Source of the DNA: Deltaproteobacteria bacterium RBG_13_52_11
Lineage (GTDB): Bacteria; Desulfobacterota; B13-G15; RBG-16-54-18
Direction of reading: 5' to 3'
Length of the DNA: 35,985 nucleotides
Assembly: GCA_001797745.1 (NCBI GenBank)
Contig: MGQF01000050.1
Span: forward strand, 77,226 to 113,210
The notes beneath the pieces are model-generated. The model worked only from the letters and a program-made list of their open reading frames with translations. It did not search any database and was not told the origin of the DNA. Positions 9,793 to 28,456 of the stretch are shown here, piece by piece. Each line of letters opens with the position of its first letter. Position 1 is the first letter of the stretch. A program made the translations under genes and the position numbers.

Positions 9793-10764
9793 TCATCGCT
9801 TCGTAGCTAATTGTAAGATGGAGCGGTACGTTCGGTTATCCCGAAGGAAGCCCATAATACCTTGCGGTGCGAGTAACATTATGCCGACCAGTATTATGCC
9901 CTGTATGAGCAGACTGATTCCAGCATATCGAGCTAGCAGGAAGTGCAAAAATACAACGACAGCCGTTCCAACAATCGGGCCCTCTTCAATACTCATGCCC
10001 CCTATGACTGTAGCGAGCATTAAAATCATTGTCCACCGTATATTGAAGGCGCTTGTCGGCTCTATATAGCCTTGATAAATGTAAAAGATGGCCCCAGCTA
10101 TTCCCGTTACGAAGGCGCCAATGACGAAAGAATACAGCTTTAATTTGAAAACATCTATCCCGCAACTGGCGGCAGTTCTATCATTATCGCGAATCGATGC
10201 AAGCCCCAATCCTAGCTTTGAACGCAAAATTAATCGCATAAGAAAAACCGATGCAATCCCGATAACGAGAGCAAGCCAGTAAAACTCCGTCATGGAAACC
10301 CCAGTCACCCCTTTTACCATATAGCCCGCACCCCCACCGTGCATCTCACCTCCGACAGGTCTCCAGAGAAAAAATACAATCCTCAGCGCTTCAGGTATAA
10401 CGAGTGTCCCGATAGCGAAATAGATGCCGCTCAGTCTGAAAACAGGAATAGATATGAGTATAGCAAACGCTGCAGCTACTATAGCTCCAGCTATTATTCC
10501 TAGATAAAAAGGTAACCCCATCCACGTGCATATTACCAGCGTGTATCCTGCCAGCCCAATGAACGCAGGCTGGCACAAGGATATCAGACCGGAGTAGCCA
10601 GCAAGCAAATTCCACATATTCGCCATGGTCAGATATACAAAATAGAGAAAAAGGTACAGGACCCAACTACGGGGCGCTCCTACTATCGGAAGCACCATGA
10701 GCAAGACTATGAGCACTGCAGACGGTAACAACCCTCCACTCAATCGATGAATGATATCCCTCAT
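9793..10764 (-). CDS. Branched-chain-amino-acid-type (LivM-like) ABC transporter permease
   Basis: 323-aa polytopic membrane protein of the LivM/BPD_transp_2 type, last gene of the five-gene ABC array. Confidence 0.85.
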   Translation of the reverse strand: MRDIIHRLSGGLLPSAVLIVLLMVLPIVGAPRSWVLYLFLYFVYLTMANMWNLLAGYSGLISLCQPAFIGLAGYTLVICTWMGLPFYLGIIAGAIVAAAFAILISIPVFRLSGIYFAIGTLVIPEALRIVFFLWRPVGGEMHGGGAGYMVKGVTGVSMTEFYWLALVIGIASVFLMRLILRSKLGLGLASIRDNDRTAASCGIDVFKLKLYSFVIGAFVTGIAGAIFYIYQGYIEPTSAFNIRWTMILMLATVIGGMSIEEGPIVGTAVVVFLHFLLARYAGISLLIQGIILVGIMLLAPQGIMGFLRDNRTYRSILQLATKR

Positions 10765-10771
10765 ATTTCTC

Positions 10772-11644
10772 CTAACGGCCGAATATGCCTTGGGGCCTTA
10801 CGGCTAAGACTATAAGCACCATGCCATAAGCAATCAGCATTTGAGCCGCACAACCCAAGAAATAACCACCAAGCGTTTGAGCCAACCCCAGGACCATGCC
10901 CCCTATAAATGTCCCCACCATGCTGCCTAAACCTCCTATTATAACCACGCCAAAAGCAATGATGAGAAAGGAGACTCCTGATTGCGGGGTAAATGGAAAA
11001 GTCAATCCAAGGAACACACCGGCTAAAGCGGCAGTTGCCATAGAGATAGCGAAGGCGAGGGCATACATGCGGCCAGTATTAATTCCCATCAGCTGAGCTG
11101 CCCTCCTATCCTGAGAGGCAGCATTGATAGCCTTGCCCAAATAAGTCCTGCTCAGGAATTCACGGAGGGAAAACATCACTATTAAAGCGGCAATAAAATC
11201 GAGTAGATATGCGAGCGGGACACGAGTGCCGCCGACACCAAAACTTACAAGCGCGTAAGAAGTTGTCAAACCCCTTGACATCGGAGACCAAATGATCTGT
11301 TGAAAATTTTGAAGTGTAAGAGAAATCCCAAAGGCGATTATCAATGGAGCTTCCATTGATATTGCAAAAGCGCGGCTCAAGAGATATTTTTGAATAGCGA
11401 AACCCATTACAAATAAAAGGGGCATACCGATGACGAGGCTTAGAATAGGGTCAATCCCTAACATAGTCATTGCTGCATAAGCGAAGTAGCTGCTGAATAG
11501 GACGAGATCTCCGTGAGCTACGTTAATCAATTTCATGACCCCGAAAACGAGAGAAAGACCTAAGGCAATTAACGCGTATAATCCGCCTAATAGAATACCC
11601 ATCATGATCGGAGTAGATAAGTCCCCTAAAAATTCTAAAGTCAT
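10772..11644 (-). CDS. LivH-like ABC transporter permease
   Basis: 290-aa polytopic membrane protein. The INVAHGD motif near the N-terminus is typical of LivH-type permeases. Confidence 0.85.
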   Translation of the reverse strand: MTLEFLGDLSTPIMMGILLGGLYALIALGLSLVFGVMKLINVAHGDLVLFSSYFAYAAMTMLGIDPILSLVIGMPLLFVMGFAIQKYLLSRAFAISMEAPLIIAFGISLTLQNFQQIIWSPMSRGLTTSYALVSFGVGGTRVPLAYLLDFIAALIVMFSLREFLSRTYLGKAINAASQDRRAAQLMGINTGRMYALAFAISMATAALAGVFLGLTFPFTPQSGVSFLIIAFGVVIIGGLGSMVGTFIGGMVLGLAQTLGGYFLGCAAQMLIAYGMVLIVLAVRPQGIFGR

Positions 11645-11666
11645 CTCTACAATCTCCTAATAAATT

Positions 11667-12386
11667 TCATATACCAAAGTATGCTTTTTTAACCTCCTCT
11701 TCTTCCCGAAGATCCGCTACATTCCCGTTCAAGACAACACGCCCCGCCTCCATAATATATGCCCTGTCGGCCTCGTCGAGGCTTCGCCTTACATTCTGCT
11801 CAACAAGGAGGATAGTAATGCCTCTTTCTCTAATTTTTCTCAAAGCCTTATACACGTTATTAATAACTATAGGGGCCAGCCCAAGGGACATTTCATCAAG
11901 AAGCATAAGCTTTGGGTTTGACATGAGACCCCGCCCTAAGGCGAGCATCTGCTGTTCGCCCCCGCTTAGTGTTTTAGCCAGTTGATTCTTCCTCTCTTCC
12001 AGTATAGGAAAGAGTTCATACACTATTTTAAAGTTTTGTTCTTTCTTGGGCCTCGCCTTAGGATTGTATGAACCTAGTATGAGATTGTCGAGCACGCTCA
12101 GGTCGGGGAAAACCCTTCTTCCTTCTGGAACTTGGGAAATACCGAGAGCAACTATTTGAAAGGGATCCAGAGTGGTGATGCTCTTCCCCTCAAACTCAAT
12201 GCCGCCCTTAGCAGAACGAATTAAACCCGATATTGTATCCAGCAGGGTGGACTTGCCCGAACCATTGGCGCCAATAAGAGCTACAATTTCTTGGGGTTTA
12301 ACTTCTAAGGATACATTCCACAGGGCTTGAAAACCGCCGTAAAATGTATCTATATTGCTAACTCTCAGCAAAGTTTTTTTAGGCAT
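11667..12386 (-). CDS. LivF-like ABC transporter ATP-binding protein
   Basis: Walker A GANGSGKST, signature LSGGEQQ, Walker B LLDE, and a C-terminal KKAYFGI typical of LivF. Confidence 0.88.
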   Translation of the reverse strand: MPKKTLLRVSNIDTFYGGFQALWNVSLEVKPQEIVALIGANGSGKSTLLDTISGLIRSAKGGIEFEGKSITTLDPFQIVALGISQVPEGRRVFPDLSVLDNLILGSYNPKARPKKEQNFKIVYELFPILEERKNQLAKTLSGGEQQMLALGRGLMSNPKLMLLDEMSLGLAPIVINNVYKALRKIRERGITILLVEQNVRRSLDEADRAYIMEAGRVVLNGNVADLREEEEVKKAYFGI

Positions 12387-12431
12387 TCCCTCGCCTCTCC
12401 ACCTTACGTTAAATCAGACCTATGTATATCA

Positions 12432-13148
12432 TTAACCGAAGTAGGCTCCAATTACTTTTTTATTTTTCATTACCTCGGTCGGCTTGCCTTCAGCGATTTT
12501 CATGCCTTCATCCATCACTATAATCCTGTCAACCGCCTTCGTCATTACTTTCATAACATGTTCGATTAATATAATTGTTATCCTCATTTCGTTTATTTCT
12601 TTTAAGAGGTCTAATACCTGTGGAATTTCCGTTTCATTTAAACCCGCAGCAAGTTCGTCAATCATCAGTAGTGTCGGTTTGGTGGCTAAGACCCTCGCTA
12701 GTTCGAGTCTTTTGAGCGATATCTCTTCTAAATCATCAGCGTGCATATCTTTCTTTTCTGAAAGCCCTACAATAGTAAGTACTTTAGCAGCTTCATGCTC
12801 AGCTGTAGATTTACTAAGGCCTCTTCCAAATATTGCTGCTACCACTATGTTTTGTAGAACTGTTAATTTAACAAAGGGCTGTGGAATCTGATAGGTCCTG
12901 GCAATACCAAGGTGGCACATTTTATGTGGGGGAAGACCTGTGATGTCATGTCCTTTAAATTTTATTGTTCCGGAGTCAGGCTTATACTCACCAGCTATGA
13001 CATTTAGTAATGTTGTCTTGCCGGCACCGTTTGGGCCCATCAACCCTATCACTTCACCAGCCTGCACATCAAAACTCAGGTCTACAACAGCAGCTAAGCC
13101 TCCGAAATATTTATGTACTCCATCCACTGAAAGAACCGGTGTTTTCAA
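12432..13148 (-). CDS. LivG-like ABC transporter ATP-binding protein
   Basis: Walker A GPNGAGKTT, Walker B MIDE, and a C-terminal VIGAYFG typical of LivG. Confidence 0.88.
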   Translation of the reverse strand: MKTPVLSVDGVHKYFGGLAAVVDLSFDVQAGEVIGLMGPNGAGKTTLLNVIAGEYKPDSGTIKFKGHDITGLPPHKMCHLGIARTYQIPQPFVKLTVLQNIVVAAIFGRGLSKSTAEHEAAKVLTIVGLSEKKDMHADDLEEISLKRLELARVLATKPTLLMIDELAAGLNETEIPQVLDLLKEINEMRITIILIEHVMKVMTKAVDRIIVMDEGMKIAEGKPTEVMKNKKVIGAYFG

Positions 13149-13204
13149 GCCTGCGCACCTCCCTTAGATAAAAAAATAGGGTGACAAATGTTCAAGGTTC
13201 ATTC

Positions 13205-13406
13205 CTTAAAAGATATAGGGTGGGAAGACTGCTTCAGCCGTTGCCTTAATGAAATCGTACTCGGCAAAGACCGTGGGCATTACTTTGTTTGTCTTCCCAC
13301 CCTATATCATACCTCCCTCATATTAAGCTCGGCTCCGTAACGTGGGCCGGCTCTTTCGATTGCACCAACTAGGTCGCGTACATAACACGCTCATCGATAT
13401 CCCCCG
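13205..13406 (-). pseudogene. Relic of the C-terminal ~65 codons of a second, paralogous ABC substrate-binding protein
   Basis: The minus-strand translation directly after the intact SBP stop reads GGYR*ACYVRDLVGAIERAG ... GGKTNKVMPTVFAEYDFIKATAEAVFPPYIF*. The intact SBP upstream ends with GPGYRSVQVLIDAIKRAG ... QKTDKPWVWECPVVFSKHDFIKESAKPLFPIPYNK*. The relic carries stops, a frame break and an internal deletion. Confidence 0.6.
13212..13308 (-). other. Perfect 18-bp inverted repeat (GATATAGGGTGGGAAGAC ... GTCTTCCCACCCTATATC) with a 61-nt loop
   Basis: Read directly. It lies inside the SBP relic, between the SBP gene and the first ATPase gene. On the mRNA strand it is followed by UUUUAA. Confidence 0.6.
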
Positions 13407-13407
13407 T

Positions 13408-14739
13408 TTATTTGTTGTACGGAATGGGGAATAGCGGCTTGGCCGACTCCTTTATGAAGTCGTGCTTGGAGAAGACTACCGGGCATTCCCATACCCACGG
13501 TTTGTCAGTCTTCTGCCACTGGCCAAACACGAGCGGCCCCCGGCTAAAGTGGTTCTCATCAAACTTGACACGATGACCAATTGTCATCAAATCGGTTTCC
13601 GCCAGGGCGGCATTAACCTTCTCTCCGTTAAGTGTGCCAGCCCTTTTAATAGCGTCAATGAGAACCTGGACTGAGCGATAGCCTGGTCCAACACCTCTGT
13701 TTAATTGTTTCTTTGTCTCTTTAGACCATTTTTCAGCGAGCGACTGTGGGGTTGTGCCTCCAATACCTGGTGAATTGGCGAATGACGGATCCCACCATAT
13801 CTCACAACCGATGCCGAGTGGTATGTCACCACCCCAAGCTTTTATGTCTTCATAGAAAAGTGGCGCTCTGCCAATGGAGACCATCTTGGGCTTAAAGCCC
13901 TGCGTGGCACATTGTCTCAGCAGCGTCCCAACGAAGGGAGCGGGAGCATTACCCCAGAGTATTTCACACTTATAATCTTTCCACGCTTTTATGACAGACG
14001 TAAAGTCCGTCGTGTCCATAGGCGCTAGGCCGACCTTTTTTGCTACACCGCAGACATCATAGCCCATTTTCTTTAGGAAGCCGGGGAATAGCCCATACCA
14101 GCCAACCCCGTCGGGGTCATCGGACGCGAAGACAGCCACCTTCTTATTGGTCTTGTTGCCGTACAAGTCCAGCATGGCCTGCCAAGTATCCGTTATTGTG
14201 TATCCAGGTTTAGCTCGGAAATCTCCCGGTGGAGCCGGTATGACGATGGCAAACAGACCAGTGGCCCAGGTGTATTGCCAATGTCCTTCAACTGCCTGCC
14301 GCATACCCAACCACGGTTCCACAGGACCGGTTGAAGTAACGTATGGGATCTTAAACCTGTCGGCTACAGTAGATACGCCAGCGTGCATCGGCGGCGGTTC
14401 ATCACCTGATGCCAGGAAGTGTACCTTATCGTTAACAATCAAGGATTCGGCAAGAGTCCCTCCCTTTTGTGGGTCGCTCTCGGTATTAACGACCACAAGT
14501 TTGATGGGCAATTTACCGTTATACTCTTTTACAGGCACTCCACCTTCTTTGTTGATATCCTCGACAGCCGCTTTCATCCCAAATACGTAGCCCTCGCCGA
14601 AACCGGCATACATGCCGGTTAACGGAGCCGGTACGCCGATACGAATTTCTTCTTTTGGTCCCTTCTTGCACCCGCTGAAAATCAGCGCGCTTGCCAAAAC
14701 GATCATGAACGAAACTACAATAAACTTTTTCATTGTCAC
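13408..14739 (-). CDS. Liv/Peripla_BP_6-type ABC transporter substrate-binding lipoprotein
   Basis: 443 aa with a signal peptide and lipobox (LIFSGC). It is the first gene of the ABC array. SBPs of this family are known to bind amino acids, urea/amides or aromatic acids. Confidence 0.85.
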   Translation of the reverse strand: MTMKKFIVVSFMIVLASALIFSGCKKGPKEEIRIGVPAPLTGMYAGFGEGYVFGMKAAVEDINKEGGVPVKEYNGKLPIKLVVVNTESDPQKGGTLAESLIVNDKVHFLASGDEPPPMHAGVSTVADRFKIPYVTSTGPVEPWLGMRQAVEGHWQYTWATGLFAIVIPAPPGDFRAKPGYTITDTWQAMLDLYGNKTNKKVAVFASDDPDGVGWYGLFPGFLKKMGYDVCGVAKKVGLAPMDTTDFTSVIKAWKDYKCEILWGNAPAPFVGTLLRQCATQGFKPKMVSIGRAPLFYEDIKAWGGDIPLGIGCEIWWDPSFANSPGIGGTTPQSLAEKWSKETKKQLNRGVGPGYRSVQVLIDAIKRAGTLNGEKVNAALAETDLMTIGHRVKFDENHFSRGPLVFGQWQKTDKPWVWECPVVFSKHDFIKESAKPLFPIPYNK

Positions 14740-14973
14740 TACCTCCCTTCTAAAATTAAGAAATCTTATCTGCCTACTTCCTCACATGAGCATGGGCATA
14801 GGCATCACCTCCTTCTTCCTCAACTAAATTCGCGTTCAAGATTTATTTACTTAAGAACTCAATAATAGATTTAGCACTCCTTTAAACCCAGGTCCGCGGA
14901 CAAGACAAAAAAGCTGATCAGGAGATTTACAACACCGGCAACTTCACGACCAAAATCTTTGTTTGTCTTGTTC

Positions 14974-15915
14974 CTACGAGCCTCCGTGCTCCTTGGTCCA
15001 TTTCAGCAGATAATTCACCAATCCCTGCCTTAGGCTCGTAGCCCTTTCAGGGGGCCATTCCTGAAACCCCCGGCCGGTCTTTAAACCGAGATCACCTTTC
15101 TCAACTTTTTCTTTCAGTATAGGTGAGGGACCATGAGAGTCTTCAATGTGTTTCAGAACATAGTTATGAATGGCCAGGGTCAGATCAAGACCGGCCAGAT
15201 CGGCGTTTTCCATCGGGCCTAAAACCGGCAGCCTCAAACCAAAGCTGTTTTTTACGGCCTCATCGACCTCAGCAGGATCAGCAATCCCATTCTGGACAAT
15301 GGAGATCGCCTCTCGCCAGAGGGCATGTTGAAGCCTGTTTGCCAAAAATCCGGGCACATCCTTTTTTACCCGTACGGGTTTTTTCCCCACAGCCTTCATG
15401 AGGGCCATGGTTTTTTCCATGGTCTCTTCAGAGGTTTCCTTTGCCTTGACAACTTCTACCAGCGGGATCAGGTGGGGAGGATTCCAGAAATGGGTCCCGA
15501 CGATCCTCTCCCGACCTTTCGCTTTTTCTGCTATTTCTGTGGGGCTGATGACAGACGTGTTAGTAGCCAGAATTGCTTTCTCATGACATAATCTATCCAA
15601 TCTCTGGAAGAAATCCTGCTTCAATGCCAGATCCTCTCCAATAGCTTCTTCGACGAAATCCGCGTTGGAGACAGCCTCTTCAAAGTCGTTTGTCGTTTTG
15701 ATCAGTTTAATGGCTGGTTCAATATCTTCCTGGCGACCAATACCATTTTTTGCCATGAGTTCCAGATTGGCTCGAACCGTCTTCACGACCTGGGGTAATA
15801 CTTCAGGTCTGCGTGCCCAGATCGTTGTGTTATAGCCCTTCACGGCAAAGATCTGAGCGAGCCCCGGGCCCATCATCCCGGCGCCGAGGACAGTGATGTT
15901 CTTTATTTCTGACAT
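14974..15915 (-). CDS. 3-hydroxyacyl-CoA dehydrogenase-family (3HCDH) NAD(P)-dependent dehydrogenase; candidate (S)-3-hydroxy-5-oxohexanoate dehydrogenase
   Basis: 313 aa with the Rossmann motif VLGAGMMGPG and 3HCDH_N/C architecture (NPPHLIPLVEV). It sits next to a BKACE gene, as the 3HCDH-family beta-hydroxy-acid dehydrogenase does in carnitine catabolism. Confidence 0.75.
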   Translation of the reverse strand: MSEIKNITVLGAGMMGPGLAQIFAVKGYNTTIWARRPEVLPQVVKTVRANLELMAKNGIGRQEDIEPAIKLIKTTNDFEEAVSNADFVEEAIGEDLALKQDFFQRLDRLCHEKAILATNTSVISPTEIAEKAKGRERIVGTHFWNPPHLIPLVEVVKAKETSEETMEKTMALMKAVGKKPVRVKKDVPGFLANRLQHALWREAISIVQNGIADPAEVDEAVKNSFGLRLPVLGPMENADLAGLDLTLAIHNYVLKHIEDSHGPSPILKEKVEKGDLGLKTGRGFQEWPPERATSLRQGLVNYLLKWTKEHGGS

Positions 15916-15927
15916 ATTAATATCCTC

Positions 15928-16719
15928 CTACCCTGCGGTATAACCGCCGTCTGTGCAAATAATGGCTCCGGTCAAAAAGTCGGAGGCCCTTGAAGACAGA
16001 AAGATAACCGTCCCAATAAAATCCTCCGGCTCTCCCAACCTCCCGAGGGGGATTCGTTTGAGGAAATTCTTGTAAAATGCCTGATCATCAAACATCCATT
16101 GTGTCAAAGCCGTCCGAAATACCGTGGGCGCGATAGCGTTAACATTAATACCGTACTGGCCCCATTCGCACCCCAGTGATTTCGCTAAAAGATGGACAGC
16201 ACCTTTGGACGGGCTGTATCCGGTATAGTTGGCCATGCCCAACTCACCGCGCGCCGATCCCAAAAGGATCACCTTGCCGCCCTTTCCCTGTTTGATCATG
16301 ACCTTTCCGACTTCTTTACAAAAGAGCCATGTCCCCTTGACATTGGCATCCATGATCATATCCCATTCTTCCAGGGGCTGGTCGACGATGGGACCCGGCT
16401 TATTCACGCCAGCCGCCGTAATCAGAATGTCTATCCTGCCGAATTTATTAACCGTATCTTTGACTACTCTCTTGACATCTTCATATTCAATGGGTGAGCC
16501 TGCGGAATAGGCCGCGACACCACCCTCCTTCTCTATTTCTTTTACGAGGGGTTTAAGCTTTCCCTCGTCTCGGCCGGTCGCCATGACCTTTACACCGGCC
16601 ATTGCCAATGCCATGGCAGCGGCATGACCAAAACCACCAGTGGCACCCGTGATGAGGGCTACTTTCCCTGAGACATCAAATAAATCTTTTAGCAGGTCCA
16701 TTCCTTTTTTCATCGCCAT
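15928..16719 (-). CDS. Short-chain dehydrogenase/reductase; candidate phloroglucinol reductase
   Basis: 263 aa with TGATGGFG, NAAG-like TAAG, a catalytic Ser and YSPSK. The family assignment is firm; the substrate is inferred from gene context only. Confidence 0.7.
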   Translation of the reverse strand: MAMKKGMDLLKDLFDVSGKVALITGATGGFGHAAAMALAMAGVKVMATGRDEGKLKPLVKEIEKEGGVAAYSAGSPIEYEDVKRVVKDTVNKFGRIDILITAAGVNKPGPIVDQPLEEWDMIMDANVKGTWLFCKEVGKVMIKQGKGGKVILLGSARGELGMANYTGYSPSKGAVHLLAKSLGCEWGQYGINVNAIAPTVFRTALTQWMFDDQAFYKNFLKRIPLGRLGEPEDFIGTVIFLSSRASDFLTGAIICTDGGYTAG

Positions 16720-16776
16720 TTTTTTACTCCCTCCTTAGGCATCAGGTTTTAGCCTGTTCTCCACCTTACCCCGATC

Positions 16777-16791
16777 TATCCGTAACGGATA
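16777..16791. promoter_or_regulatory. Perfect palindrome TATCCGT-A-ACGGATA in the BKACE-SDR spacer
   Basis: Read directly. It lies in the 99-bp gap between the BKACE stop (16819) and the SDR start (16719). Confidence 0.3.
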
Positions 16792-16818
16792 CCGGCCATA
16801 ATCTATAGAATGGATGTC

Positions 16819-17742
16819 TTAATAATTAACTTTGTCAATGCCCTTAAGCTGAAGTATCTCCCTCGCTTCATCTTCGGTGGCCGGTTCATATCCGAGCTCG
16901 CGGATAATGCGGATGGCCTTCTCAACCTGTTCGGCGCTGCTCTTGGCCAGCACGCCTTTTTCAAGGTAGAGGTTGTCTTCCAGACCTACTCTCCAAAACC
17001 CGCCCTCAAGCACATTGATCACGCCCATGGGGAACTGGAACCTTCCGGCCGCACAAACAGACCATTTAAAGTCTTCACCCAGTAATTTTTTGGCTTCCCT
17101 GATCATGTAGAGCAGGTTGTCTCCGGTAGCAGGAATACCACCAAGGATACCCATGACAAACTGCAAGTAGATCGGTTTTTTGAGGTAGCCCTCTCTTATA
17201 AGCTGGTCAACGTTATTGATCTGTCCTACATCATAGATCTCAATCTCCGGCCGGGTATTCATTTCATTCATGGCCTTTAAGTAGATGTGTAGAGATGCAA
17301 AGTGATTTGAGAAGATAAAGCTCTCTGTCCCTTCAAGATAGGCCTTCTCCCAGGGATACTTGAACTCCTTGACCTTCTGCACCACCGGATACAAGGCAAA
17401 GTTGAGTGACCCGGCATTAAAAGTGGCCATCTCAGGCTTTAATGCGCTCACAACAGCGAGCCTCTCCTGCGGTGTCATGGTCGGACTTCCGCCGGTAGTG
17501 GGAGTTATCACTACCTTTGATTTGGCCTTTATGCCGCTCAAGATCTCCTTGAAGATTTCACCACTGGAAGAAGGAGAGCCGTCCTTAGGGTTCCTGGCGT
17601 GAACATGTACAACGGCAGCGCCCGCATTATGAGATCTCACCGCCTCGTCGATGATATGTTCCGTGCTGAATGGGAGATATTCGGACATTGATGGCGTATG
17701 AATAGCTCCTGTCAGAGCTGCGGTAATGATTACTTTAGACAT
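16819..17742 (-). CDS. BKACE (beta-keto acid cleavage enzyme, DUF849) family protein; candidate triacetate acetoacetate-lyase
   Basis: 307 aa. The N-terminus VIITAALTGAIHTPSMSEYLP and the overall TIM-barrel-type pattern are typical of 3-keto-5-aminohexanoate cleavage enzyme relatives. Confidence 0.8.
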   Translation of the reverse strand: MSKVIITAALTGAIHTPSMSEYLPFSTEHIIDEAVRSHNAGAAVVHVHARNPKDGSPSSSGEIFKEILSGIKAKSKVVITPTTGGSPTMTPQERLAVVSALKPEMATFNAGSLNFALYPVVQKVKEFKYPWEKAYLEGTESFIFSNHFASLHIYLKAMNEMNTRPEIEIYDVGQINNVDQLIREGYLKKPIYLQFVMGILGGIPATGDNLLYMIREAKKLLGEDFKWSVCAAGRFQFPMGVINVLEGGFWRVGLEDNLYLEKGVLAKSSAEQVEKAIRIIRELGYEPATEDEAREILQLKGIDKVNY

Positions 17743-17909
17743 TTCAATCCCTCCTTCATTGAATGTTATGAGATCAATAGCATTATCACCGATCCGCAGG
17801 CCTCATTGCCATCATACCAAAATGACCGTGTGCCGCATAGGTTTTTACATCCTTTAACTCGACTTTTTTTATAATCCTTGGCACCTACTAGTACAGGTAA
17901 AAAATCCTG

Positions 17910-18683
17910 CTATTGATCGCCTTCATCAACAATGGCAACAATCCGGACAATGGACCCATCGCCCTTCTCCCAGCGGATGGGGAAGCCGGCCAGGGTGACC
18001 CTCTTCCCCAGGACCTTGTCAATATCGCCGCCGACATTCTCGTAGCCCATGATGCCGTTACGCAGGAGCAGGTTATGGCACGGCTCCCATTCGGGAAAGT
18101 CTTCCAGCACATCACGCCCGGTCTCCTTTTTGTATTCCTCGCAGACATCCGGCCGTATCGGGTTCTTGCCGTGAACAGGGCCATGGGGGCCGATGGTGGT
18201 GGCGAGGGGATGATCCAGTGCCTGCTGGTCAACGCCGACGCACTTCACGCCCTTAGCGACGAACCACTCGCCCGCTTCTCGGTAGAGGCCGGGGGAGTAG
18301 CAGAAATACTTGGTGCTATCACCCCAATAATGGTGCCAGCCTGTATGAACTATCACCATGTCGCCCTTTTCAATTTTGGGCCTAGCCCTCTCCAGGTCTT
18401 CGGGCATAATCTTTTCCCACTTATTCTTCGGTATATCCACGACGACGCCGGTGCCATAGTACTTTTCCAGGGGGATATCGGCAGTGTACATACCGCCCTC
18501 AAAGACATGGGCCGGTGAATCGGCATGGGTCGTGCAGTGCATGGTGGTCGTGATGACCTGGGAGAGAACCCCAGATTTGGCATGATAATGCATGCGCTCA
18601 ATCTTGACATCGGCAAAATACGGCCACAGGGGTACTTTGTCACCAAAAGGATGGCTTAAATCATATAATTTTACTTTTCCCAC
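17910..18683 (-). CDS. Cyclase-family (kynurenine formamidase / isatin hydrolase-like) metal hydrolase; candidate dihydrophloroglucinol cyclohydrolase
   Basis: 257 aa. HCTTHADSPAH matches the HxGTHxDxPxH metal-binding motif of PF04199-type cyclases. It lies directly downstream of the IclR gene. Confidence 0.75.
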   Translation of the reverse strand: MGKVKLYDLSHPFGDKVPLWPYFADVKIERMHYHAKSGVLSQVITTTMHCTTHADSPAHVFEGGMYTADIPLEKYYGTGVVVDIPKNKWEKIMPEDLERARPKIEKGDMVIVHTGWHHYWGDSTKYFCYSPGLYREAGEWFVAKGVKCVGVDQQALDHPLATTIGPHGPVHGKNPIRPDVCEEYKKETGRDVLEDFPEWEPCHNLLLRNGIMGYENVGGDIDKVLGKRVTLAGFPIRWEKGDGSIVRIVAIVDEGDQ

Positions 18684-18736
18684 AGGTTCACCTCCTACTA
18701 GTTATATTACTCAGACCAACCCATCATATTTTGTAA

Positions 18737-19468
18737 TTATACATTATTATTATAATGGTAATGGAGTTGAGCCGAAATCTTTGTTGCAGTATCCTTCAAT
18801 GGAGAAACAATAGGTGAATCATTATCCCATGTAACCCTCGGAGAGGGTCCGGCAACTACAACAGCTGCCACCGGTTTTTCTTTATAGTTAAATATAGGGG
18901 CACCAACAGCATTAATACCAATGTCGATCTCCTCATTATCGAAAGAGAATCCTTGCCGCCTTATATCTTGTAACTGACGTTGAAACATCTTTGGATCCGT
19001 AATGGTATTCGGAGTAAAACGAGGCATTTGTCCATTGAGAAGGCTGTCCCTGACCTCAGGAGGAGAAAAAGCCAGTATGGCTTTGGCTCCGGCTGCTGCA
19101 TGGATCGGGAGCCTGTCTCCGATGGTGCCAGCAATACGGACCTGTTGAGGTCCCTCAGCAATGTAAGCCATGACTGTACTGTTGCCTACAAGCACTTCAA
19201 AAACAATAGTCTCTTTAAGTGTGCTCCGTAGATCATCAATATATGACTTTGCAATATAAACCAAATTAGTATTGAGAAATTGATTGACAGTCCATCCAAG
19301 ATTGGTAATGGACGGTCCAAGCATGAATTTTTTTGTCTGAGGATTCTGTTGGAGAAAGCCGTACCTCATGAGAATAAGGAGAATTCGAGAGACTGTTGCC
19401 TTATGAAAACCCAATTTCTTACTAATCTCAACGGTCCCCATTTCTTGATTGTATGGGGTAAAGGCCAA
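18737..19468 (-). CDS. IclR family transcriptional regulator (true start probably further upstream, up to 19510)
   Basis: HTH region EISKKLGFHKATVSRILLILMRYGFL plus a C-terminal IclR effector domain. The listed start is a TTG. The frame stays open for 14 more codons (IKKFNSIEKVIEIL) that look like the usual IclR N-terminus. That extension begins at an ATA (19508-19510) placed 6 nt after AGGAG. Confidence 0.85.
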   Translation of the reverse strand: MAFTPYNQEMGTVEISKKLGFHKATVSRILLILMRYGFLQQNPQTKKFMLGPSITNLGWTVNQFLNTNLVYIAKSYIDDLRSTLKETIVFEVLVGNSTVMAYIAEGPQQVRIAGTIGDRLPIHAAAGAKAILAFSPPEVRDSLLNGQMPRFTPNTITDPKMFQRQLQDIRRQGFSFDNEEIDIGINAVGAPIFNYKEKPVAAVVVAGPSPRVTWDNDSPIVSPLKDTATKISAQLHYHYNNNV

Positions 19469-19534
19469 CAGTATTTCTATGACCTTTTCGATGGAATTAA
19501 ATTTCTTTATTTTCGTCTCCTATTATAAGACATG

Positions 19535-19551
19535 GTATCATAATATGATAC
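19535..19551. promoter_or_regulatory. Perfect palindrome GTATCAT-AAT-ATGATAC, candidate IclR auto-operator
   Basis: Read directly. It lies between a sigma70-like promoter and the IclR start region, about where transcription would begin. Confidence 0.45.
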
Positions 19552-19556
19552 AATAT

Positions 19557-19585
19557 TATTTATACATTTTTAATAAAATTGTCAA
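19557..19585 (-). promoter_or_regulatory. Sigma70-like promoter for the IclR-led operon
   Basis: The minus strand reads TTGACA (19580-19585), a 17-nt spacer, then TAAATA (19557-19562). An alternative -10, TATAAA, would give a 15-nt spacer. Confidence 0.4.
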
Positions 19586-19624
19586 GCGAAGTTTTTTTAT
19601 TTGTTTTCAAAAAAAATTTATAGG

Positions 19625-19690
19625 ATGAAGTTCGGTTATCCGGACCTAATATTTTGATAACGGAGCGTTATTAAACGCTTTTCTCTATAT
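19625..19690. repeat. Copy of the dispersed intergenic repeat, longest match to the interior of the 7339 element
   Basis: CGGACCTAATATTTTGATAACGGAGCGTTATTAAACGCTTTTCT aligns with 7357-7400, CGGACCTACTATTTTGATACCGTATTGTCATTAAACGCCCTTCT, at roughly 35 of 44 positions. The 5' part matches 9634-9670. Confidence 0.5.
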
Positions 19691-20053
19691 CTTTATCTTT
19701 TCAATGCAAAAAAACCTTGCAGTTGTGCCTAAAAAAGGAAGCCACGAAAAGGAGACTGGTTTGAGCTCAAAATGGATAACGCTTTTCATGTTTGACTATG
19801 CACATCGGAGATATCTGTAATGTTTGACTTTTGGATCTGACCACAACATGTAGAATAATGATCTAACCATACTTTAAGACTGTTACGAGAAAGGAGCCGA
19901 TCGGGAATTGTTTACCTGAACTTGACAGTAATAGATGTAGACTAAAACTCTTTCAATCATTTGGAGACAAAAATCTTTCTGAGATGCGCGTGATTCACTA
20001 TCCCTCGAGACAACCGAATCCTTGAACCACCATATATTGAGATGCTTTCTTGT

Positions 20054-20082
20054 TTGACAGATAAACCTTATTTCAATATATA
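20054..20082 (+). promoter_or_regulatory. Sigma70-like promoter upstream of the OsmC-like gene
   Basis: TTGACA (20054-20059), a 17-nt spacer, then TATATA (20077-20082), about 40 nt before the ATG at 20124. Confidence 0.45.
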
Positions 20083-20123
20083 AATATCGTCTAGAAAAGA
20101 TGAAATCTTGAAAGGAGAGGAAA

Positions 20124-20594
20124 ATGGGAAAGATTATCCATACATCCAAAATCACCATCACACGGGTTGAGGGCTCAACTCGCAAAGCCTTTGTCGAAGG
20201 ATTCAAAGAACCGATATTCTACGGTGTGCACGGAGGAATTAAGCGATTTTACGGGATTGAGCCGAAAGAAGAACATCCAGCTACCCTTGACCACATCATA
20301 GGGGGTGTGGGAGGGTGAATGATGGGAACCTTGGCTAGGTTTTTGGCCGAGAAAGATATTCCGACCACCGAAGATCGTTACTGTGCCCGTGTGGAAGGCG
20401 ACATTGAAGATGTTAATGGTATCCTCAAAATCACCCGGATAAAAGTCAATTATAATCTTAAGATTCCTCCAGGGAAGGTAAATGATGCCCGCCAGGCATT
20501 CGAGCAGTATCTTCCTTACTGCCCTGGCGCCCAAAGTGTCATCGGCTCTATCCATATCGAGCATGCTTTAAAAATAGAAGAAGAAAAGCTATGA
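20124..20594 (+). CDS. OsmC/Ohr-family peroxiredoxin-like protein with an in-frame UGA (candidate selenocysteine) at the peroxidatic Cys position
   Basis: ORFs 20124-20318 and 20319-20594 are contiguous and in the same frame, separated only by the TGA at 20316-20318. The joined 156-aa product reads ...HPATLDHIIGGVGG[U]MMGTLARFL... and ...YLPYCPGAQSV.... These match the two conserved Cys motifs of OsmC. The RBS GGAGAGG lies before the ATG. Confidence 0.65.
20324..20344 (+). promoter_or_regulatory. Candidate bacterial SECIS hairpin
   Basis: GGGAACCU-UGGCU-AGGUUUUU: five Watson-Crick pairs extended by G-U pairs, with a G-containing apical loop about 17 nt after the UGA. This is within the spacing range usual for bacterial SECIS elements. 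Confidence 0.4.
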
Positions 20595-20617
20595 TCAGAA
20601 TTTTCACAATGTTGTGA

Positions 20618-20746
20618 AAGTTTCTTGACAACCATTGTATGGCTGAATATGTATGGCGTTTCAACCATCGTAGATACTCTCGTACTAAGCAAGTTACTAA
20701 GCTGCTAAAAATGCTTTATAATTACAAACACGTACATAATAATTAG
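20618..20746 (+). pseudogene. Relic of the C-terminus of an IS1595-family (ISXO2-like) transposase
   Basis: The translation is KFLDNHCMAEYVWRFNHRRYSRTKQVTKLLKMLYNYKHVHNN*. The (Y)xxE(Y/F)xxRxNxR motif is the characteristic C-terminal signature of IS1595-type DDE transposases. There is no upstream coding continuation. Confidence 0.45.
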
Positions 20747-20792
20747 TGGCTAAAGTAGCACTTTACCCATCACAATATAGGTTACTTTTGTA

Positions 20793-20820
20793 TTGACACT
20801 TGTCAAGCATGTGCTATAAT
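20793..20820 (+). promoter_or_regulatory. Near-consensus sigma70 promoter whose -35 box is embedded in a palindrome
   Basis: TTGACA (20793-20798), a 16-nt spacer, then TATAAT (20815-20820). The -35 box is part of TTGACA-CT-TGTCAA (20793-20806). Confidence 0.55.
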
Positions 20821-21059
20821 TCTCAAGAACATAATGGCACTAGCTCCTGTTTGAGCGCCGAGGGATGGGTAAATATTATTAATTATTATTTATAATGAAG
20901 ACATACAAGGAACCCGAACCAATGAACCCTGAGAAGTAAACGAGGAGACCCCGGAATTATACAATGGAAACCCATCCTAATTTTTCAGAGGCATAACGTA
21001 AGATTAAACTTACAAATAATTTAAGGAAGGTTAAAAACAATGAAAAAAAGAGGTTAGGT

Positions 21060-21094
21060 GGGGGAAGGAATACAGAAAGTTCCTTTCCCCCTTT
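21060..21094 (+). terminator. Terminator/attenuator-like hairpin just upstream of dctQ2
   Basis: GGGGGAAGGAA-tacagaaag-TTCCTTtCCCCC (11 bp with one bulge), followed by TTTACATTT. It is preceded by a 5-codon mini-ORF, ATG AAA AAA AGA GGT TAG (21040-21057), which has an AAGGAAGG RBS. Confidence 0.4.
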
Positions 21095-21134
21095 ACATTT
21101 ATGAATGAAACTAGAACTGAAAGGGGGTTCTTAC

Positions 21135-21650
21135 ATGGGAAGAAAAAAAGCATATGGAGATCGTAGTAAAGGATTGTTAAATACGGTAAAAGGCGTCAGC
21201 AGCTTTCTTAATATCATTGCAGGGGTCGCTCTCACATTCCTTATGTGTCTCACCATCGCCGACGTTATCTTGAGATTTTTCAGAAGGCCTATTGTTGGTA
21301 CGTACGAACTGGTGGCCTTTTCAGGGGCCGTGGGGATCGGTTTCGCCCTCCCTCTTACCTCCTGGGCGAGGCAGCATATCTTTGTTGATTTTGTGATTAT
21401 GAAGTTTTCACGGAAGGTGAAAGATGCCTTCAACGTTGCTACGAGATGTTTGGTGATAGCGCTATTGTTACTGGTTAGTTGGAACATGTTCAAGTTTGGA
21501 CAGACTTTGCAGAATGCAGGGGAGGTTTCCCCCACGTTACAGATACCCTTTTATCCTATTGCTTACGCAGTGGGGGTTTGCTTCTTCATTCTGTGCCTGG
21601 TGTTCGTGTGCGATATTATAAAAATATCAGGAGGTGAATACGATGTATGA
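21135..21650 (+). CDS. dctQ: TRAP transporter small permease subunit (second copy)
   Basis: DctQ-like protein of about 171 aa with four TM segments. The ATG at 21135 follows AAAGGGGG; the listed 21105 start is less likely. Its stop overlaps the dctM2 start. Confidence 0.8.
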   Translation: MGRKKAYGDRSKGLLNTVKGVSSFLNIIAGVALTFLMCLTIADVILRFFRRPIVGTYELVAFSGAVGIGFALPLTSWARQHIFVDFVIMKFSRKVKDAFNVATRCLVIALLLLVSWNMFKFGQTLQNAGEVSPTLQIPFYPIAYAVGVCFFILCLVFVCDIIKISGGEYDV

Positions 21651-22944
21651 GGTCATGATAGGACTTATTGGCCTGGCAGTATTGTTAGTCTTGTTCCTTA
21701 CAGGGATTGAGTTAGGATTTGCGATGGCATTGATTGGTTTCCTCGGATTCTCTATCATTGTATCCACAAAGGCTGCGTTGAACCTAATCGCCAAGGATTT
21801 TTTTGATGTCTTTGCATCGTACGGGTTCACCGTCATACCCCTCTTTATCCTGATGGGTCAGGTTGCATTCAATGCGGGGATTGCGAGGAGGCTGTTCAAC
21901 ACTGCCTTTAAATTTATTGGCCATGTTCCCGGAGGCTTGGCCATGGCCACGGTGGCAGGTGCAACGGCCTTCAAGGCCATCTGCGGCTCATCACCTGCCA
22001 CGGCTGCCACCTTTGCCAGTGTGGCCGTGCCTGAGATGGATCGATATAAGTATAGCAAGAAGCTATCCACGGGGATTGTGGCTACAGTAGGAACCCTTGG
22101 GGTCCTTATCCCGCCGAGTGTCACCTTGATCGTATTCGGCATCATCACAGAACTGTCCATTGGTAAATTGTTTCTGGCTGGGATCATTCCAGGGCTGATC
22201 ATCGCCTTCTTTTTTATCTGTATCATCTATGTTTGGTGTAAGATCAACCCGAAGTTAGGCCCTAAGGGCAAAAAATCAACGTGGAAGGAAAGGATAGCTT
22301 CCCTTCCAGAGTTTGCAGTGGTCGTTGTTATCTTCGTGCTGATGATATGGGGACTGATGAAGGGGATATTTACCCCAACCGAGGCAGGGAGCGTTGGGAC
22401 CGGATTAGTCCTCCTTGTGTCTGTTGTAAGAAGGGATATCGATTTCAAGGGGTTCCTCAAATCAATCGCAGAATCTTTGCGTACTGCTTGTATGGTCCTG
22501 ACGCTCATCGCAGGTTCTACCATCCTGGGCCATTTTCTCGCCGTGACGAAGCTCCCCATGATTGCGGCCGATTGGGTTGTGGCGCTTCCTCTGAACAAAT
22601 TCATTATTATGATCATAATCAGTTTTATCTATCAAACAGGGGGATCTTTTATTGACGATCTGGCTTTCATGGTGCTTGCCACACCGATCTTTTATCCTGT
22701 GATCATCAAACTGGGTTTTGATCCTATATGGTTCGGCATGATCATTGCGATTACGGTTATGATTGGGGTTGTTATTCCACCGGTGGCGATCAATGTCTTT
22801 GTAGTAAAGAATATCACCAAGGTGCCATTTAGCGTGATTTACAGCGGCGTCTATCCCTTTTTGATCAGTCTTGTGGTTGCCGCCGTGCTGTTGTTCTTCT
22901 TCCCACAAATCGCCCTTTGGCTCCCCAATCTAATGATGAAGTAG
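21643..22944 (+). CDS. dctM: TRAP transporter large permease subunit (second copy, no adjacent dctP)
   Basis: Paralog of the 2807-4105 product, sharing IPPS, FTPTEAGSVG and GFDPIWFGM. The ATG at 21643 lies 8 nt after AGGAGG and forms an ATGTATGA overlap with dctQ2. Confidence 0.9.
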   Translation: MYEVMIGLIGLAVLLVLFLTGIELGFAMALIGFLGFSIIVSTKAALNLIAKDFFDVFASYGFTVIPLFILMGQVAFNAGIARRLFNTAFKFIGHVPGGLAMATVAGATAFKAICGSSPATAATFASVAVPEMDRYKYSKKLSTGIVATVGTLGVLIPPSVTLIVFGIITELSIGKLFLAGIIPGLIIAFFFICIIYVWCKINPKLGPKGKKSTWKERIASLPEFAVVVVIFVLMIWGLMKGIFTPTEAGSVGTGLVLLVSVVRRDIDFKGFLKSIAESLRTACMVLTLIAGSTILGHFLAVTKLPMIAADWVVALPLNKFIIMIIISFIYQTGGSFIDDLAFMVLATPIFYPVIIKLGFDPIWFGMIIAITVMIGVVIPPVAINVFVVKNITKVPFSVIYSGVYPFLISLVVAAVLLFFFPQIALWLPNLMMK

Positions 22945-22951
22945 CAATGGA

Positions 22952-22986
22952 GGGGGAAGGGATGCCCTTTATTCCTTCCCCCTTTT
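22952..22986 (+). terminator. Rho-independent terminator after dctM2
   Basis: GGGGGAAGG-gatgccctttatt-CCTTCCCCC followed by TTTT. The stem and 3' flank closely resemble the hairpin at 21060. Confidence 0.6.
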
Positions 22987-23080
22987 CATTCATGGGATGT
23001 GAAGGAGTAATAGATCACCATATTATTAAACCGAAAGAATTATATTCGATCGGAATATCTTAAGAACGGGGAGTATGCAA

Positions 23081-23212
23081 ATGGATAACTGGACGTTTGG
23101 CATTTCTATGATCGTGGTGGGCATGGGAGGAACACTCTTGACACTTTGGATCTTGAGCCTCATCATGGGCGTTTTGAAAAAGGTTTTCCCTTATAAAGAA
23201 GATAAAAATTAA
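23081..23212 (+). CDS. OadG/GcdD-like small membrane subunit of an Na+-translocating decarboxylase
   Basis: This 43-aa ORF is absent from the supplied track because it is shorter than 60 aa. Its sequence is MDNWTFGISMIVVGMGGTLLTLWILSLIMGVLKKVFPYKEDKN, a single TM helix of the OAD_gamma type. GGGGAG is its RBS, and it sits directly upstream of the beta subunit. Confidence 0.55.
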   Translation: MDNWTFGISMIVVGMGGTLLTLWILSLIMGVLKKVFPYKEDKN

Positions 23213-23233
23213 TAATAAAGGAGATTAAGAGAA

Positions 23234-24373
23234 ATGTTCGAAGCGATTGTAGGCGGATTGAACGGACTTGTTAGTGGATTTGCCCATCTCCATTGGTCTA
23301 ATCCAATCATGATTGTGGTTGGCCTTGTTCTCCTCTATCTGGGGATCAAAAAGAACTTCGAACCCTTACTCCTCGTCCCCATTGGGTTTGGGTGTATCTT
23401 GGTGAATATCCCCTTAGCAGGGCTGATGGAGAAAGGGGGATTTCTCAAGGTCATCTACGATGCAGGGATTATGACGGAGCTGTTCCCGCTCCTCATCTTT
23501 GTGGGTATCGGTGCCATGACCGACTTTGGTCCCCTTCTGGAGAATCCGAAGATATTTCTTCTCGGGGCTGCAGGACAATTTGGGATTTTTCTCACCTTGG
23601 TCTTAGCACTGGCCTTAGGTTTTACTCAATTAGAAGCTGTCTCCATTGGAATCATCGGTGCCTGTGACGGGCCGACGGCGATCTATGTCACCTCTCAATA
23701 TGCGCCACATCTCTTGGGTGCGGTCTCGGTGGCTGCGTATTCGTATATGTCGCTGGTACCTGTCTTCCAGCCTCCTATCATGAAGCTCTTAACTACTAAG
23801 GAAGAGAGGATGATCAATATGGGGGAGGTGAGAAAATCGGTTTCCAAGACGACCAAGATTGCATTTCCTCTGGTTGTTACCGTCATTGGCGGCCTCATCG
23901 CACCTAAGGGGTTACCGTTGTTGGGGACGATCATGCTGGGTAATCTGATGAAGGAGTGCGGGGCCGTGAGCCGGTTGACCAAGGCCTCTGAAAATGAGAT
24001 CGCCAACATCGTCACCCTTCTTTTGGGAATCGCTATCGGAGCCACCATGGATGGCAGGGTCTTTTTAACACACCAGACCCTTATTATCTTGGCGCTTGGT
24101 TTCCTGGCCATTTGTCTTGACACGGCATGTGGTGTGTTATTCGGAAAAGCAATGAAGGTTATGTCAGGCGGGAAGATTAATCCTCTTATTGGAGCCGCCG
24201 GCATCTCAGCCTATCCCATGTCGGCGAGAGTGGTCCAGAAAGAAGGGCAGAAGTATAATCCCAAGAATTTCCTCCTCATGCATGCCATGGGAGCCAACAC
24301 TGGTGGCCAGGTCGGCTCTGTGATGGCCGCTGCGGTTATGCTTTCGGTGCTCAAGGGTATGGGGATTATTTAA
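23234..24373 (+). CDS. Na+-translocating decarboxylase beta subunit (OadB/GcdB/MmdB family)
   Basis: 379 aa. The N-terminal pattern NPIMIVVGLVLLYLGIKKNFEPLLLVPIGFGCILVNIP is diagnostic of the OAD_beta family. Confidence 0.9.
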   Translation: MFEAIVGGLNGLVSGFAHLHWSNPIMIVVGLVLLYLGIKKNFEPLLLVPIGFGCILVNIPLAGLMEKGGFLKVIYDAGIMTELFPLLIFVGIGAMTDFGPLLENPKIFLLGAAGQFGIFLTLVLALALGFTQLEAVSIGIIGACDGPTAIYVTSQYAPHLLGAVSVAAYSYMSLVPVFQPPIMKLLTTKEERMINMGEVRKSVSKTTKIAFPLVVTVIGGLIAPKGLPLLGTIMLGNLMKECGAVSRLTKASENEIANIVTLLLGIAIGATMDGRVFLTHQTLIILALGFLAICLDTACGVLFGKAMKVMSGGKINPLIGAAGISAYPMSARVVQKEGQKYNPKNFLLMHAMGANTGGQVGSVMAAAVMLSVLKGMGII

Positions 24374-24430
24374 ATTATCGTCATCACTTCAGAGCCACGA
24401 GCTCCCTATCAGGGGAGCTAAACATTTTTA

Positions 24431-24472
24431 ACGGCCCATTAAGTAGTATAAGGGGCCGTTTTTGTTTCTTTC
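24431..24472 (+). terminator. Rho-independent terminator after the decarboxylase beta gene
   Basis: ACGGCCC-(15-nt loop)-GGGCCGT followed by TTTTTGTTTCTTT. Confidence 0.55.
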
Positions 24473-28444: not shown

Positions 28445-28456
28445 TTCCGGGGTCTA

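Follow-up and report, generated by a model that had tools for sequence, protein, structure and literature searches.

The window analysed here, 35,985 nucleotides of Deltaproteobacteria bacterium RBG_13_52_11 (assembly GCA_001797745.1, contig MGQF01000050.1, positions 77,226 to 113,210), carries five consecutive minus-strand genes that very probably form a degradation operon for phloroglucinol or a very close analogue. A first-pass annotation, made from the letters alone, had placed an IclR regulator, a cyclase-family metal hydrolase, a BKACE enzyme, an SDR, and a 3HCDH-family dehydrogenase between positions 14974 and 19510 and had proposed the anaerobic phloroglucinol pathway for them. The open reading frame (ORF) list and Pfam return all five families, and every motif cited in that annotation can be located (residue 49 of the cyclase-family protein for HCTTHAD, residues 24 and 168 of the SDR for TGATGGFG and YSPSK, and residue 11 of the 3HCDH-family protein for GAGMMGPG). 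The proposed pathway is supported by the homology of all four enzymes to those of Clostridium scatologenes or to cluster-anchored orthologs, and for three of the four the identity to characterised or cluster-anchored pathway enzymes is 47-59%.

The framework for this assignment comes from Zhou et al. (2023, mBio, PMC10470551), who characterised the four C. scatologenes enzymes of anaerobic phloroglucinol degradation: the phloroglucinol reductase PGR, an NADPH-dependent SDR; the dihydrophloroglucinol cyclohydrolase DPGC, an Mn2+-dependent cyclase-family enzyme; the dehydrogenase TfD of the 3HCDH family; and TAL, a triacetate acetoacetate-lyase of the BKACE family. Diagnostic residues are given in the same work for each enzyme, namely Trp20 and Tyr22 in DPGC, which replace the substrate residues of isatin hydrolase; Ser122, His143, and Asn194 in TfD, together with the loss of Hbd Lys56 and Asn221; Trp16 in TAL, where Kce has Glu14; and a TR(S/N) motif in PGR for the 2'-phosphate of NADPH (PMC10470551). 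The four enzyme genes of the window lie consecutively on one strand (14974-18683), in keeping with the gene cluster described by Zhou et al. 2023.

For comparison, approximate CsDPGC and CsTfD sequences were recovered from supplement alignments damaged by optical character recognition (OCR). Because a protein search with the OCR-recovered CsDPGC reached 85% identity at best, we took as an undamaged proxy a clostridial-type cluster (loci L081 and L082) with the order SDR-TfD-DPGC-BKACE-CtfAB. The DPGC of this cluster shows 83-85% identity to the OCR-recovered CsDPGC, and the L082 SDR ends in GGYWAN, matching the sequence encoded by the CsPGR reverse primer. A pattern scan of species-representative genomes yielded at least 525 stretches with DPGC relatives, of which the best 80 were kept; in these, DPGC is at least 66% (66-87%) identical to that of the window.

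The window DPGC is 47.6% identical, over aligned columns, to the OCR-recovered CsDPGC versus 28.8% to isatin hydrolase. Trp20 and Tyr22 are present as W20-P-Y22 with the same numbering as in clostridial DPGCs, and the metal ligands His49, His53, Asp55, His203, and Glu215 are invariant with the Cs and Fp DPGCs, as are the QALDHPL and WEPCH motifs in an alignment of clostridial and window-type DPGCs. The published DPGC table lists short forms from Deltaproteobacteria metagenome-assembled genomes (MAGs; 257 and 251 aa), Desulfobulbaceae, and Syntrophus, and it includes a short-form DPGC from Rubrivivax gelatinosus, a known phloroglucinol degrader, which shares one UniRef50 cluster with the short forms of Deltaproteobacteria (PMC10470551).

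TfD is 55.4% identical to the OCR-recovered CsTfD versus 35.7% to Hbd (4KUH), and the two TfD sequences have in common the TfD-specific motifs GTHFWNPP.LIPLVEVVK, QHALWREAISIV.NGIAD, and SFGLRLP.LGP. Ser121, His142, and Asn193 of the window protein correspond to the catalytic and stereo-recognition residues Ser122, His143, and Asn194 of CsTfD. The CoA contacts Lys56 and Asn221 of Hbd are gone in alignments with the OCR-derived references, with a non-Lys residue (in a Gly region) and an FGLRLP stretch aligned in their places.

The SDR is 58.6% identical to the PGR ortholog of L082, which is itself 57.6% identical to PDB entry 5G4K. This entry, which we take to be the Clostridium PGR of Conradt et al. 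2016, is also the best PDB match of the window protein (252 bits), followed by a gluconate 5-dehydrogenase at 187 bits. GSARG at residue 154 joins the two SDR motifs given above, and the Ser-Tyr-Lys residues are kept. The SDRs found beside DPGC fall into two classes, class A, which includes the window protein, at 50-57% identity to the clostridial PGR ortholog and class B at 37-45%.

The lyase step differs from that of the clostridial pathway. The top NCBIfam model of the window BKACE is NF053538, "3,5-dioxohexanoate:acetyl-CoA acetone transferase", with 403.6 bits over the full length, 139 bits ahead of the next family. Among solved structures, the closest at 52.8% identity is 3LOT, an uncharacterised protein presumably from Archaeoglobus fulgidus, and identity to BKACE15 (8RIO) is 45.8%. 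For BKACE15 of Paracoccus denitrificans (PDB 8RIO/8RIP/9HNF), activity on 3,5-dioxohexanoate, that is, triacetate, has been confirmed by experiment; the enzyme accepts several beta-keto acids, and its gene context suggests aromatic degradation. Residues matching its catalytic E171 and R254 are present in the window protein (PEIEIYD, WRVGLEDN). The conserved HVH (46-48) and GLEDN motifs are also present, which from Kce we take to hold the His/His/Glu zinc-ligand positions. Where Kce has Glu14 and clostridial TAL has Trp (TGAW), the window enzyme has Ile14 (TGAIH), and its identity to the clostridial TAL ortholog of L082 is just 34.7% (307 versus 285 aa), so that membership of the CsTAL clade was rejected. 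Of the earlier identification of this gene as TAL, the function thus survives, with the lyase step plausibly encoded, and the clade does not, being that of BKACE15 and NF053538. Short-form DPGCs have neighbours of both BKACE subtypes, clostridial in L033 and L076 and of BKACE15 type in most other loci, and we therefore regard the two subtypes as filling the same role.

The 80 related loci come from Desulfobacterota, Chloroflexota, Actinomycetota, Acidobacteriota, Bacillota, and one Pseudomonas. DPGC is accompanied by an SDR in 68 of them, by a TfD-like gene in 52, and by a BKACE gene in 33; a Liv-type ABC transporter is found in 12-16 and a confident homolog of the acetoacetate-CoA ligase AacS in 8. 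No locus identical to the window occurs among the 80, and the nearest are MAGs of Deltaproteobacteria, Thermodesulfobacteriota, and Desulfobacteraceae. The order IclR-DPGC-BKACE-SDR-TfD is common to the window, L003, and L004, with the leading IclR 86% identical; in L005 the enzymes follow the same order, but the sole IclR-family gene there, with 41% identity, is found downstream and in the opposite orientation. The first-pass annotation had treated no single gene as diagnostic and had rested its case on co-occurrence, which undersells DPGC, TfD, and BKACE, each being more diagnostic than was assumed. Its suggestion of a Gram-negative anaerobe as host agrees with a BamD/LptD-like gene, with enzymes of the oxygen-sensitive benzoyl-CoA reductase (BCR)/HGD type, and with the best matches to Deltaproteobacteria and Thermodesulfobacteriota MAGs.

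The functional unit probably reaches downstream of the block to a Liv-type ABC transporter and AacS. Transporter orthologs (45-83% identity) adjoin DPGC clusters in L003, L011, L014, L034, L042, L068, L072, and L078, which belong to several phyla. Comparison of the binding protein with the PDB gave only remote matches of at most 43 bits for its ligand. AacS scores 869.6 bits against a cut-off of 520.9 with TIGR01217 and 923.3 against 639 with NF002937, above both equivalog thresholds; homologs with 51-89% identity occur in 8 of the DPGC loci, and in L004, L005, and L021 they come immediately after TfD. Since the lyase would release acetoacetate, AacS would give this product a logical fate.

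If the block and its downstream genes work as proposed, phloroglucinol would be taken up, probably through the adjacent ABC transporter, and reduced to dihydrophloroglucinol by the SDR acting as PGR with NADPH. The Mn-dependent DPGC would open the ring by a hydrolytic retro-Claisen reaction to (S)-3-hydroxy-5-oxohexanoate, which TfD would oxidise to triacetate. The Zn-dependent BKACE would then transfer the acetoacetyl unit of triacetate to acetyl-CoA, yielding acetoacetyl-CoA and acetoacetate, AacS would activate the acetoacetate to its CoA ester, and a thiolase encoded elsewhere would complete the conversion to three acetyl-CoA. IclR would probably repress the operon through a conserved palindrome over its own promoter and be released upon binding phloroglucinol or an intermediate. 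Here we infer both the ligand of the transporter and the regulatory logic.

Several points weigh against the phloroglucinol assignment. Gene content, homology, diagnostic residues, and conserved synteny are demonstrated, and all catalytic functions are predicted from the last three of these. The CsDPGC and CsTfD references are approximate, and look-ups of 5G4K and 5G4L gave no text confirming that 5G4K is a PGR. The window DPGC is a short form, 257 aa versus 312 aa in C. scatologenes, without two insertions of about 6 and 27 residues, and the sole biochemically characterised DPGC is the long-form CsDPGC (PMC10470551). The cofactor motif of the SDR, T48-G-R50-D51, reads TGRD rather than TR(S/N), with Thr and Arg kept and Asp in place of Ser/Asn; among class A homologs, Thr and Arg are likewise conserved and the last position is S, T, N, D, or A. 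The BKACE lacks Trp16, and its score with NF053538 falls below the equivalog cut-off of 430. No thiolase gene occurs in the window. A rival reading, which we judge unlikely, is that the same enzyme chemistry acts on another, related polyhydroxybenzene, for instance hydroxyhydroquinone or a phloroglucinol bearing a methyl, acyl, or carboxyl group; this compound would undergo reduction, hydrolytic ring opening, oxidation, and cleavage by the same four types of enzyme. Identities to characterised enzymes of only 35-59%, the TGRD motif, a BKACE clade unlike CsTAL whose member BKACE15 takes several beta-keto acids, and the pairing of a second, more distant SDR class with DPGC homologs all speak for another substrate. 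To our knowledge, the genes for reductive hydroxyhydroquinone degradation in sulfate reducers are unassigned, which we count on the same side. However, Trp20 and Tyr22, which contact the substrate, do not vary between the clostridial enzymes and the window DPGC, DPGC homologs 66-87% identical across many phyla suggest one common substrate, AacS fits acetoacetate as the product, and the phloroglucinol degrader R. gelatinosus has a short-form DPGC in the published table.

It could also be argued that the BKACE/3HCDH pair serves carnitine or lysine (3-keto-5-aminohexanoate) catabolism and that the SDR and the cyclase-family protein, for instance a kynurenine formamidase, are unrelated neighbours. 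The first-pass annotation noted such a pairing in carnitine catabolism, JGI pipelines name DPGC homologs "kynurenine formamidase", and the best NCBIfam matches of TfD and the SDR are models for 3-hydroxyacyl-CoA dehydrogenases and gluconate 5-dehydrogenase. These last matches are all below cut-off, and the clostridial reference cluster shows the same generic sub-threshold pattern; because NCBIfam holds no models for PGR, DPGC, TfD, or clostridial TAL, we regard them as uninformative rather than contrary. The carnitine dehydrogenase models, in turn, give 165.1 bits against a cut-off of 592 (NF005716) and 156.7 against 414 (NF005471), the Kce model NF052387 gives 264.5 against 382 with the amino-binding Glu14 replaced by Ile, and the arylformamidase model TIGR03035 gives 61.7 against 223, while dozens of genomes carry the four genes together. 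We consider a carnitine or lysine pathway hardly tenable, being already largely refuted by the profile scores and synteny. A decayed remnant, or a chance juxtaposition without a shared pathway, is very unlikely as well. Gaps of 99-259 nt separate several genes of the block, and the IclR gene has no canonical start at the expected position, both of which might be read as decay, yet all the ORFs are intact and full length relative to their homologs, the catalytic residues are intact, gene order is conserved, and a start of this non-canonical kind is also seen in L003 and L004, where the substitutions after it are of coding type.

That start deserves closer description. The codon at 19508-19510 is ATA, 6 nt after an AGGAG ribosome-binding site, and the first canonical start is a TTG at 19468. 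In the homologs, the corresponding codon is ATA in L003, ATT in L004, and ATG in more distant IclR proteins, and the substitutions that follow it in L003 and L004 are mostly at third positions. Starting at the TTG would drop the first 14 residues, which form the beginning of the helix-turn-helix (HTH) domain, and the frame from 19510 completes this domain. The upper coordinate of 19510 given in the first pass is thus defensible from the AGGAG spacing and the homologous codons, and translation likely starts at a near-cognate AUA. A palindrome, GTATCAT-ATT-ATGATAC (19535-19551, minus strand), is flanked by a TTGACA box (19580-19585) and the ribosome-binding site; it is kept with at most 2 mismatches 5' of the IclR homologs in L003, L004, L019, and L023 (Desulfobacterota and Actinomycetota, L019 and L023 being actinobacterial) and with no further copies in the other intergenic gaps of the block, which makes it a candidate IclR operator. 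An IclR-family gene occurs in 10 of the 80 loci; in 7 (L003, L004, L007, L019, L022, L023, L028) the homolog immediately precedes DPGC in the same orientation, and in the other three it is more distant or on the opposite strand.

Table 1. Features of the window and their predicted functions.
Feature	Position	Strand	Evidence and remarks
Predicted IclR-family regulator	18737-19468	-	TTG start, 243 aa; to 19510 with probable near-cognate start; IclR_C 7e-38, HTH_IclR 2e-07 (Pfam)
Predicted DPGC, cyclase family, short form	17910-18683	-	257 aa; Cyclase PF04199 2.9e-35 (Pfam)
Putative BKACE-family triacetate (3,5-dioxohexanoate) acetoacetate-lyase, BKACE15/3LOT type	16819-17742	-	307 aa; BKACE PF05853 8e-100
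Predicted PGR, classical SDR	15928-16719	-	263 aa; adh_short_C2 7e-54 (Pfam)
Predicted TfD, (S)-3-hydroxy-5-oxohexanoate dehydrogenase, 3HCDH family	14974-15915	-	313 aa; 3HCDH_N 9e-59, 3HCDH 5e-23
Liv-type ABC transporter, candidate substrate importer	9793-14739	-	Pfam
Binding lipoprotein, Peripla_BP_6	13408-14739	-	Pfam; lipoprotein-type signal (…LIFSGC)
ABC ATPases	12432-13148 and 11667-12386	-	Pfam
ABC permeases	10772-11644 and 9793-10764	-	Pfam
Predicted acetoacetate-CoA ligase (AacS)	7636-9591	-	651 aa; TIGR01217 869.6 bits, cut-off 520.9
Tentative feeder module	1341-7223	-	Pfam: TetR, DctP/Q/M, Amidohydro_2
TetR regulator	6540-7223	-	Pfam
TRAP transporter DctP/Q/M	2807-5875	-	Pfam
Amidohydro_2 hydroxybenzoate-decarboxylase-like gene	1341-2396	-	Pfam
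DctQ/DctM permease genes without adjacent DctP	within 21105-29299	+	
Na+-translocating decarboxylase beta subunit (OAD-beta)	23234-24373	+	
Four-gene set ATPase, HGD-D, HGD-D, ATPase	24691-29299	+	

Exchange of parts between such clusters may be seen in two places. The TfDs of L003 (7551) and L004 (13150-14094) are only 62-63% identical to that of the window, although IclR, DPGC, BKACE, and SDR of the same loci are 85-93% identical to their counterparts, and the TfD of L005 (8738-9673) is 89% identical; this suggests that the TfD gene has been replaced within otherwise conserved clusters. In L042 (a Dehalococcoidales MAG, 10150-15088), the transporter is 69-83% identical to that of the window and the enzymes 44-72%. 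Together with the lipoprotein signal, this conservation hints that the transporter module may have moved horizontally between phyla. The gap that separates the binding-protein gene from the first ATPase gene contains a very stable hairpin (13212-13308, minus strand; -47.5 kcal/mol, z = -4.8), in which an 18-bp inverted repeat without mismatches precedes a short run of U. It plausibly serves to terminate transcription in part or to stabilise the mRNA, so that expression of the binding protein exceeds that of the membrane components.

Among the 80 loci, DPGC is paired only with a class B SDR (40-45% identical to the window SDR) in L046-L050, L057, L059, L063, L065-L067, L070, L071, and L073, mostly from Dehalococcoidales and Chloroflexia; TfD and BKACE are both present in L048 and neither in the others. 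Class B loci without TfD and BKACE may use another downstream branch, e.g., an aldolase route, or another substrate.

The window block resembles the PGR-DPGC-TfD-TAL cluster of C. scatologenes in bringing together the same four enzyme families with an associated regulator and transporter, and the likeness extends to Trp20/Tyr22 and the metal ligands of DPGC, the catalytic residues and lost CoA contacts of TfD, and a PGR-like SDR. Apart from DPGC length and BKACE clade, the two differ in how acetoacetate would be activated (ATP-dependent AacS versus the CoA-transferase CtfAB), in uptake (an ABC versus an MFS transporter), and in regulation (IclR versus a sigma54-dependent activator gene upstream of the cluster in clostridial L082). 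With BKACE15, the window lyase shares a length of about 307-310 aa, the N-terminal motif TGAIHTPSMS, and the E171/R254 counterparts; it is set apart by the modest identity and the NF053538 score already given, with 3LOT closer. On the level of biochemistry, the proposed route is the anaerobic one of Eubacterium oxidoreducens and the Gram-negative Pelobacter acidigallici, which take phloroglucinol through dihydrophloroglucinol, 3-hydroxy-5-oxohexanoate, and triacetate to acetate/acetyl-CoA (PMC10470551). Unlike these fermenters, the host of the window looks like a member of Desulfobacterota. In Collinsella, an aldolase-dependent branch reportedly splits 3-hydroxy-5-oxohexanoate, so the PGR and DPGC steps would be shared and the window has TfD and BKACE rather than the aldolase.

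The cluster has already been reported in Gram-negative sulfate reducers (Desulfopila aestuarii and Desulforhopalus singaporensis are examples), in Archaeoglobus, and in Deltaproteobacteria MAGs (PMC10470551), and our searches of newer literature for the present variant yielded only that paper, CAMPER, and citations made in passing. The locus adds a well-supported example of Desulfobacterota type and leaves the 2023 picture unchanged. What is mildly new is accessory: the TAL role of a BKACE15-type enzyme, AacS in place of CtfAB, an ABC importer conserved along with the cluster, the candidate IclR operator, the likely near-cognate start, and a possible decarboxylase feeder. Phloroglucinol is a central intermediate of anaerobic flavonoid and tannin breakdown, and carriers of the pathway help to set the mineralisation of phenolic carbon in anoxic sediments, peat, and guts. 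Among the parts that this locus brings to attention, the short-form DPGC, the BKACE15-type lyase, the ABC transporter, AacS, and the IclR operator are biochemically unstudied. The practical value lies mainly in annotation, as DPGC homologs are labelled "kynurenine formamidase" and the best NCBIfam matches of PGR, TfD, and BKACE all stay below cut-off.

Farther downstream, a TetR regulator, a TRAP transporter, and an Amidohydro_2 gene make up a tentative feeder module. The Amidohydro_2 protein is closest to LigW, a 5-carboxyvanillate decarboxylase (242 bits), and then to gamma-resorcylate decarboxylase (226 bits). Homologs 41-49% identical to it stand directly in the DPGC clusters of L010 and L021, and L005 has two Amidohydro_2 copies upstream of DPGC, together with a TRAP transporter. 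These associations suggest that the module may import a carboxylated precursor, e.g., 2,4,6-trihydroxybenzoate, and decarboxylate it to phloroglucinol.

Two copies of a 41-nt element are present in the window, at 19615-19655, 5' of IclR, and at 9617-9657, immediately 5' of the AacS start. They are 88% identical, with a 26-nt core for which 0 chance matches are expected, and contain a GTCCG-N6-CGGAC inverted repeat. Weaker copies at 7330-7370 and, inverted, at 7572-7600 flank the upstream region of TetR, and none of the 82 related loci has the element. This sequence may be an operator of the neighbouring TetR or a small repeat; a sigma-54 promoter was ruled out by inspection of the spacing.

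A possible but doubtful extension of the phloroglucinol assignment is that the five genes form the core of an island of about 18 kb (1341-19655) for funnelling polyphenols, carried by a Desulfobacterota-like anaerobe and comprising the ABC importer, the BKACE15-type lyase, AacS, the TRAP/decarboxylase genes, and IclR with a second regulator. In such an island, the Liv-type transporter would be a dedicated high-affinity importer of phloroglucinol, the BKACE15-type enzyme would stand in place of clostridial TAL, and acetoacetate salvage would be ATP-dependent through AacS. The TRAP transporter and a decarboxylase of the LigW/gamma-resorcylate type would bring in a carboxylated precursor, e.g., 2,4,6-trihydroxybenzoate (a flavonol breakdown product), and turn it into phloroglucinol, and control would be shared by the AUA-started IclR repressor and the second regulator acting on the 41-nt element of the IclR and AacS promoters. 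None of these components has so far been characterised for the phloroglucinol pathway.

The plus-strand genes on the other side of the block were considered as pathway members and rejected. DctQM, OAD-beta, and the BCR-like genes do not travel with DPGC in the 80 loci, where only weak TRAP-permease matches (26-41% identity) to them were found, in 3 loci. The set of two ATPase and two HGD-D genes resembles class I benzoyl-CoA reductase or double-cubane reductases and falls below every equivalog cut-off.

In the window as a whole, neither Rfam families nor tRNAs were found. A 257-aa ORF at 5896-6669 (plus strand) has no Pfam match, overlaps the 3' end of TetR on the opposite strand, and is probably no real gene. 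The stretch 19656-21100 is AT-rich (GC about 0.38-0.41) and gene-poor, with only an OsmC-like remnant below threshold (20319-20594). It contains a perfect consensus sigma-70 promoter with an extended -10 element at 20793-20820 (plus strand) and, just before the DctQ gene, a terminator-like hairpin with a 12-bp stem at 21060-21090. The region between them has no match in Rfam, and the arrangement of promoter and hairpin (20793-21090) suggests a leader of about 240 nt or an attenuator.

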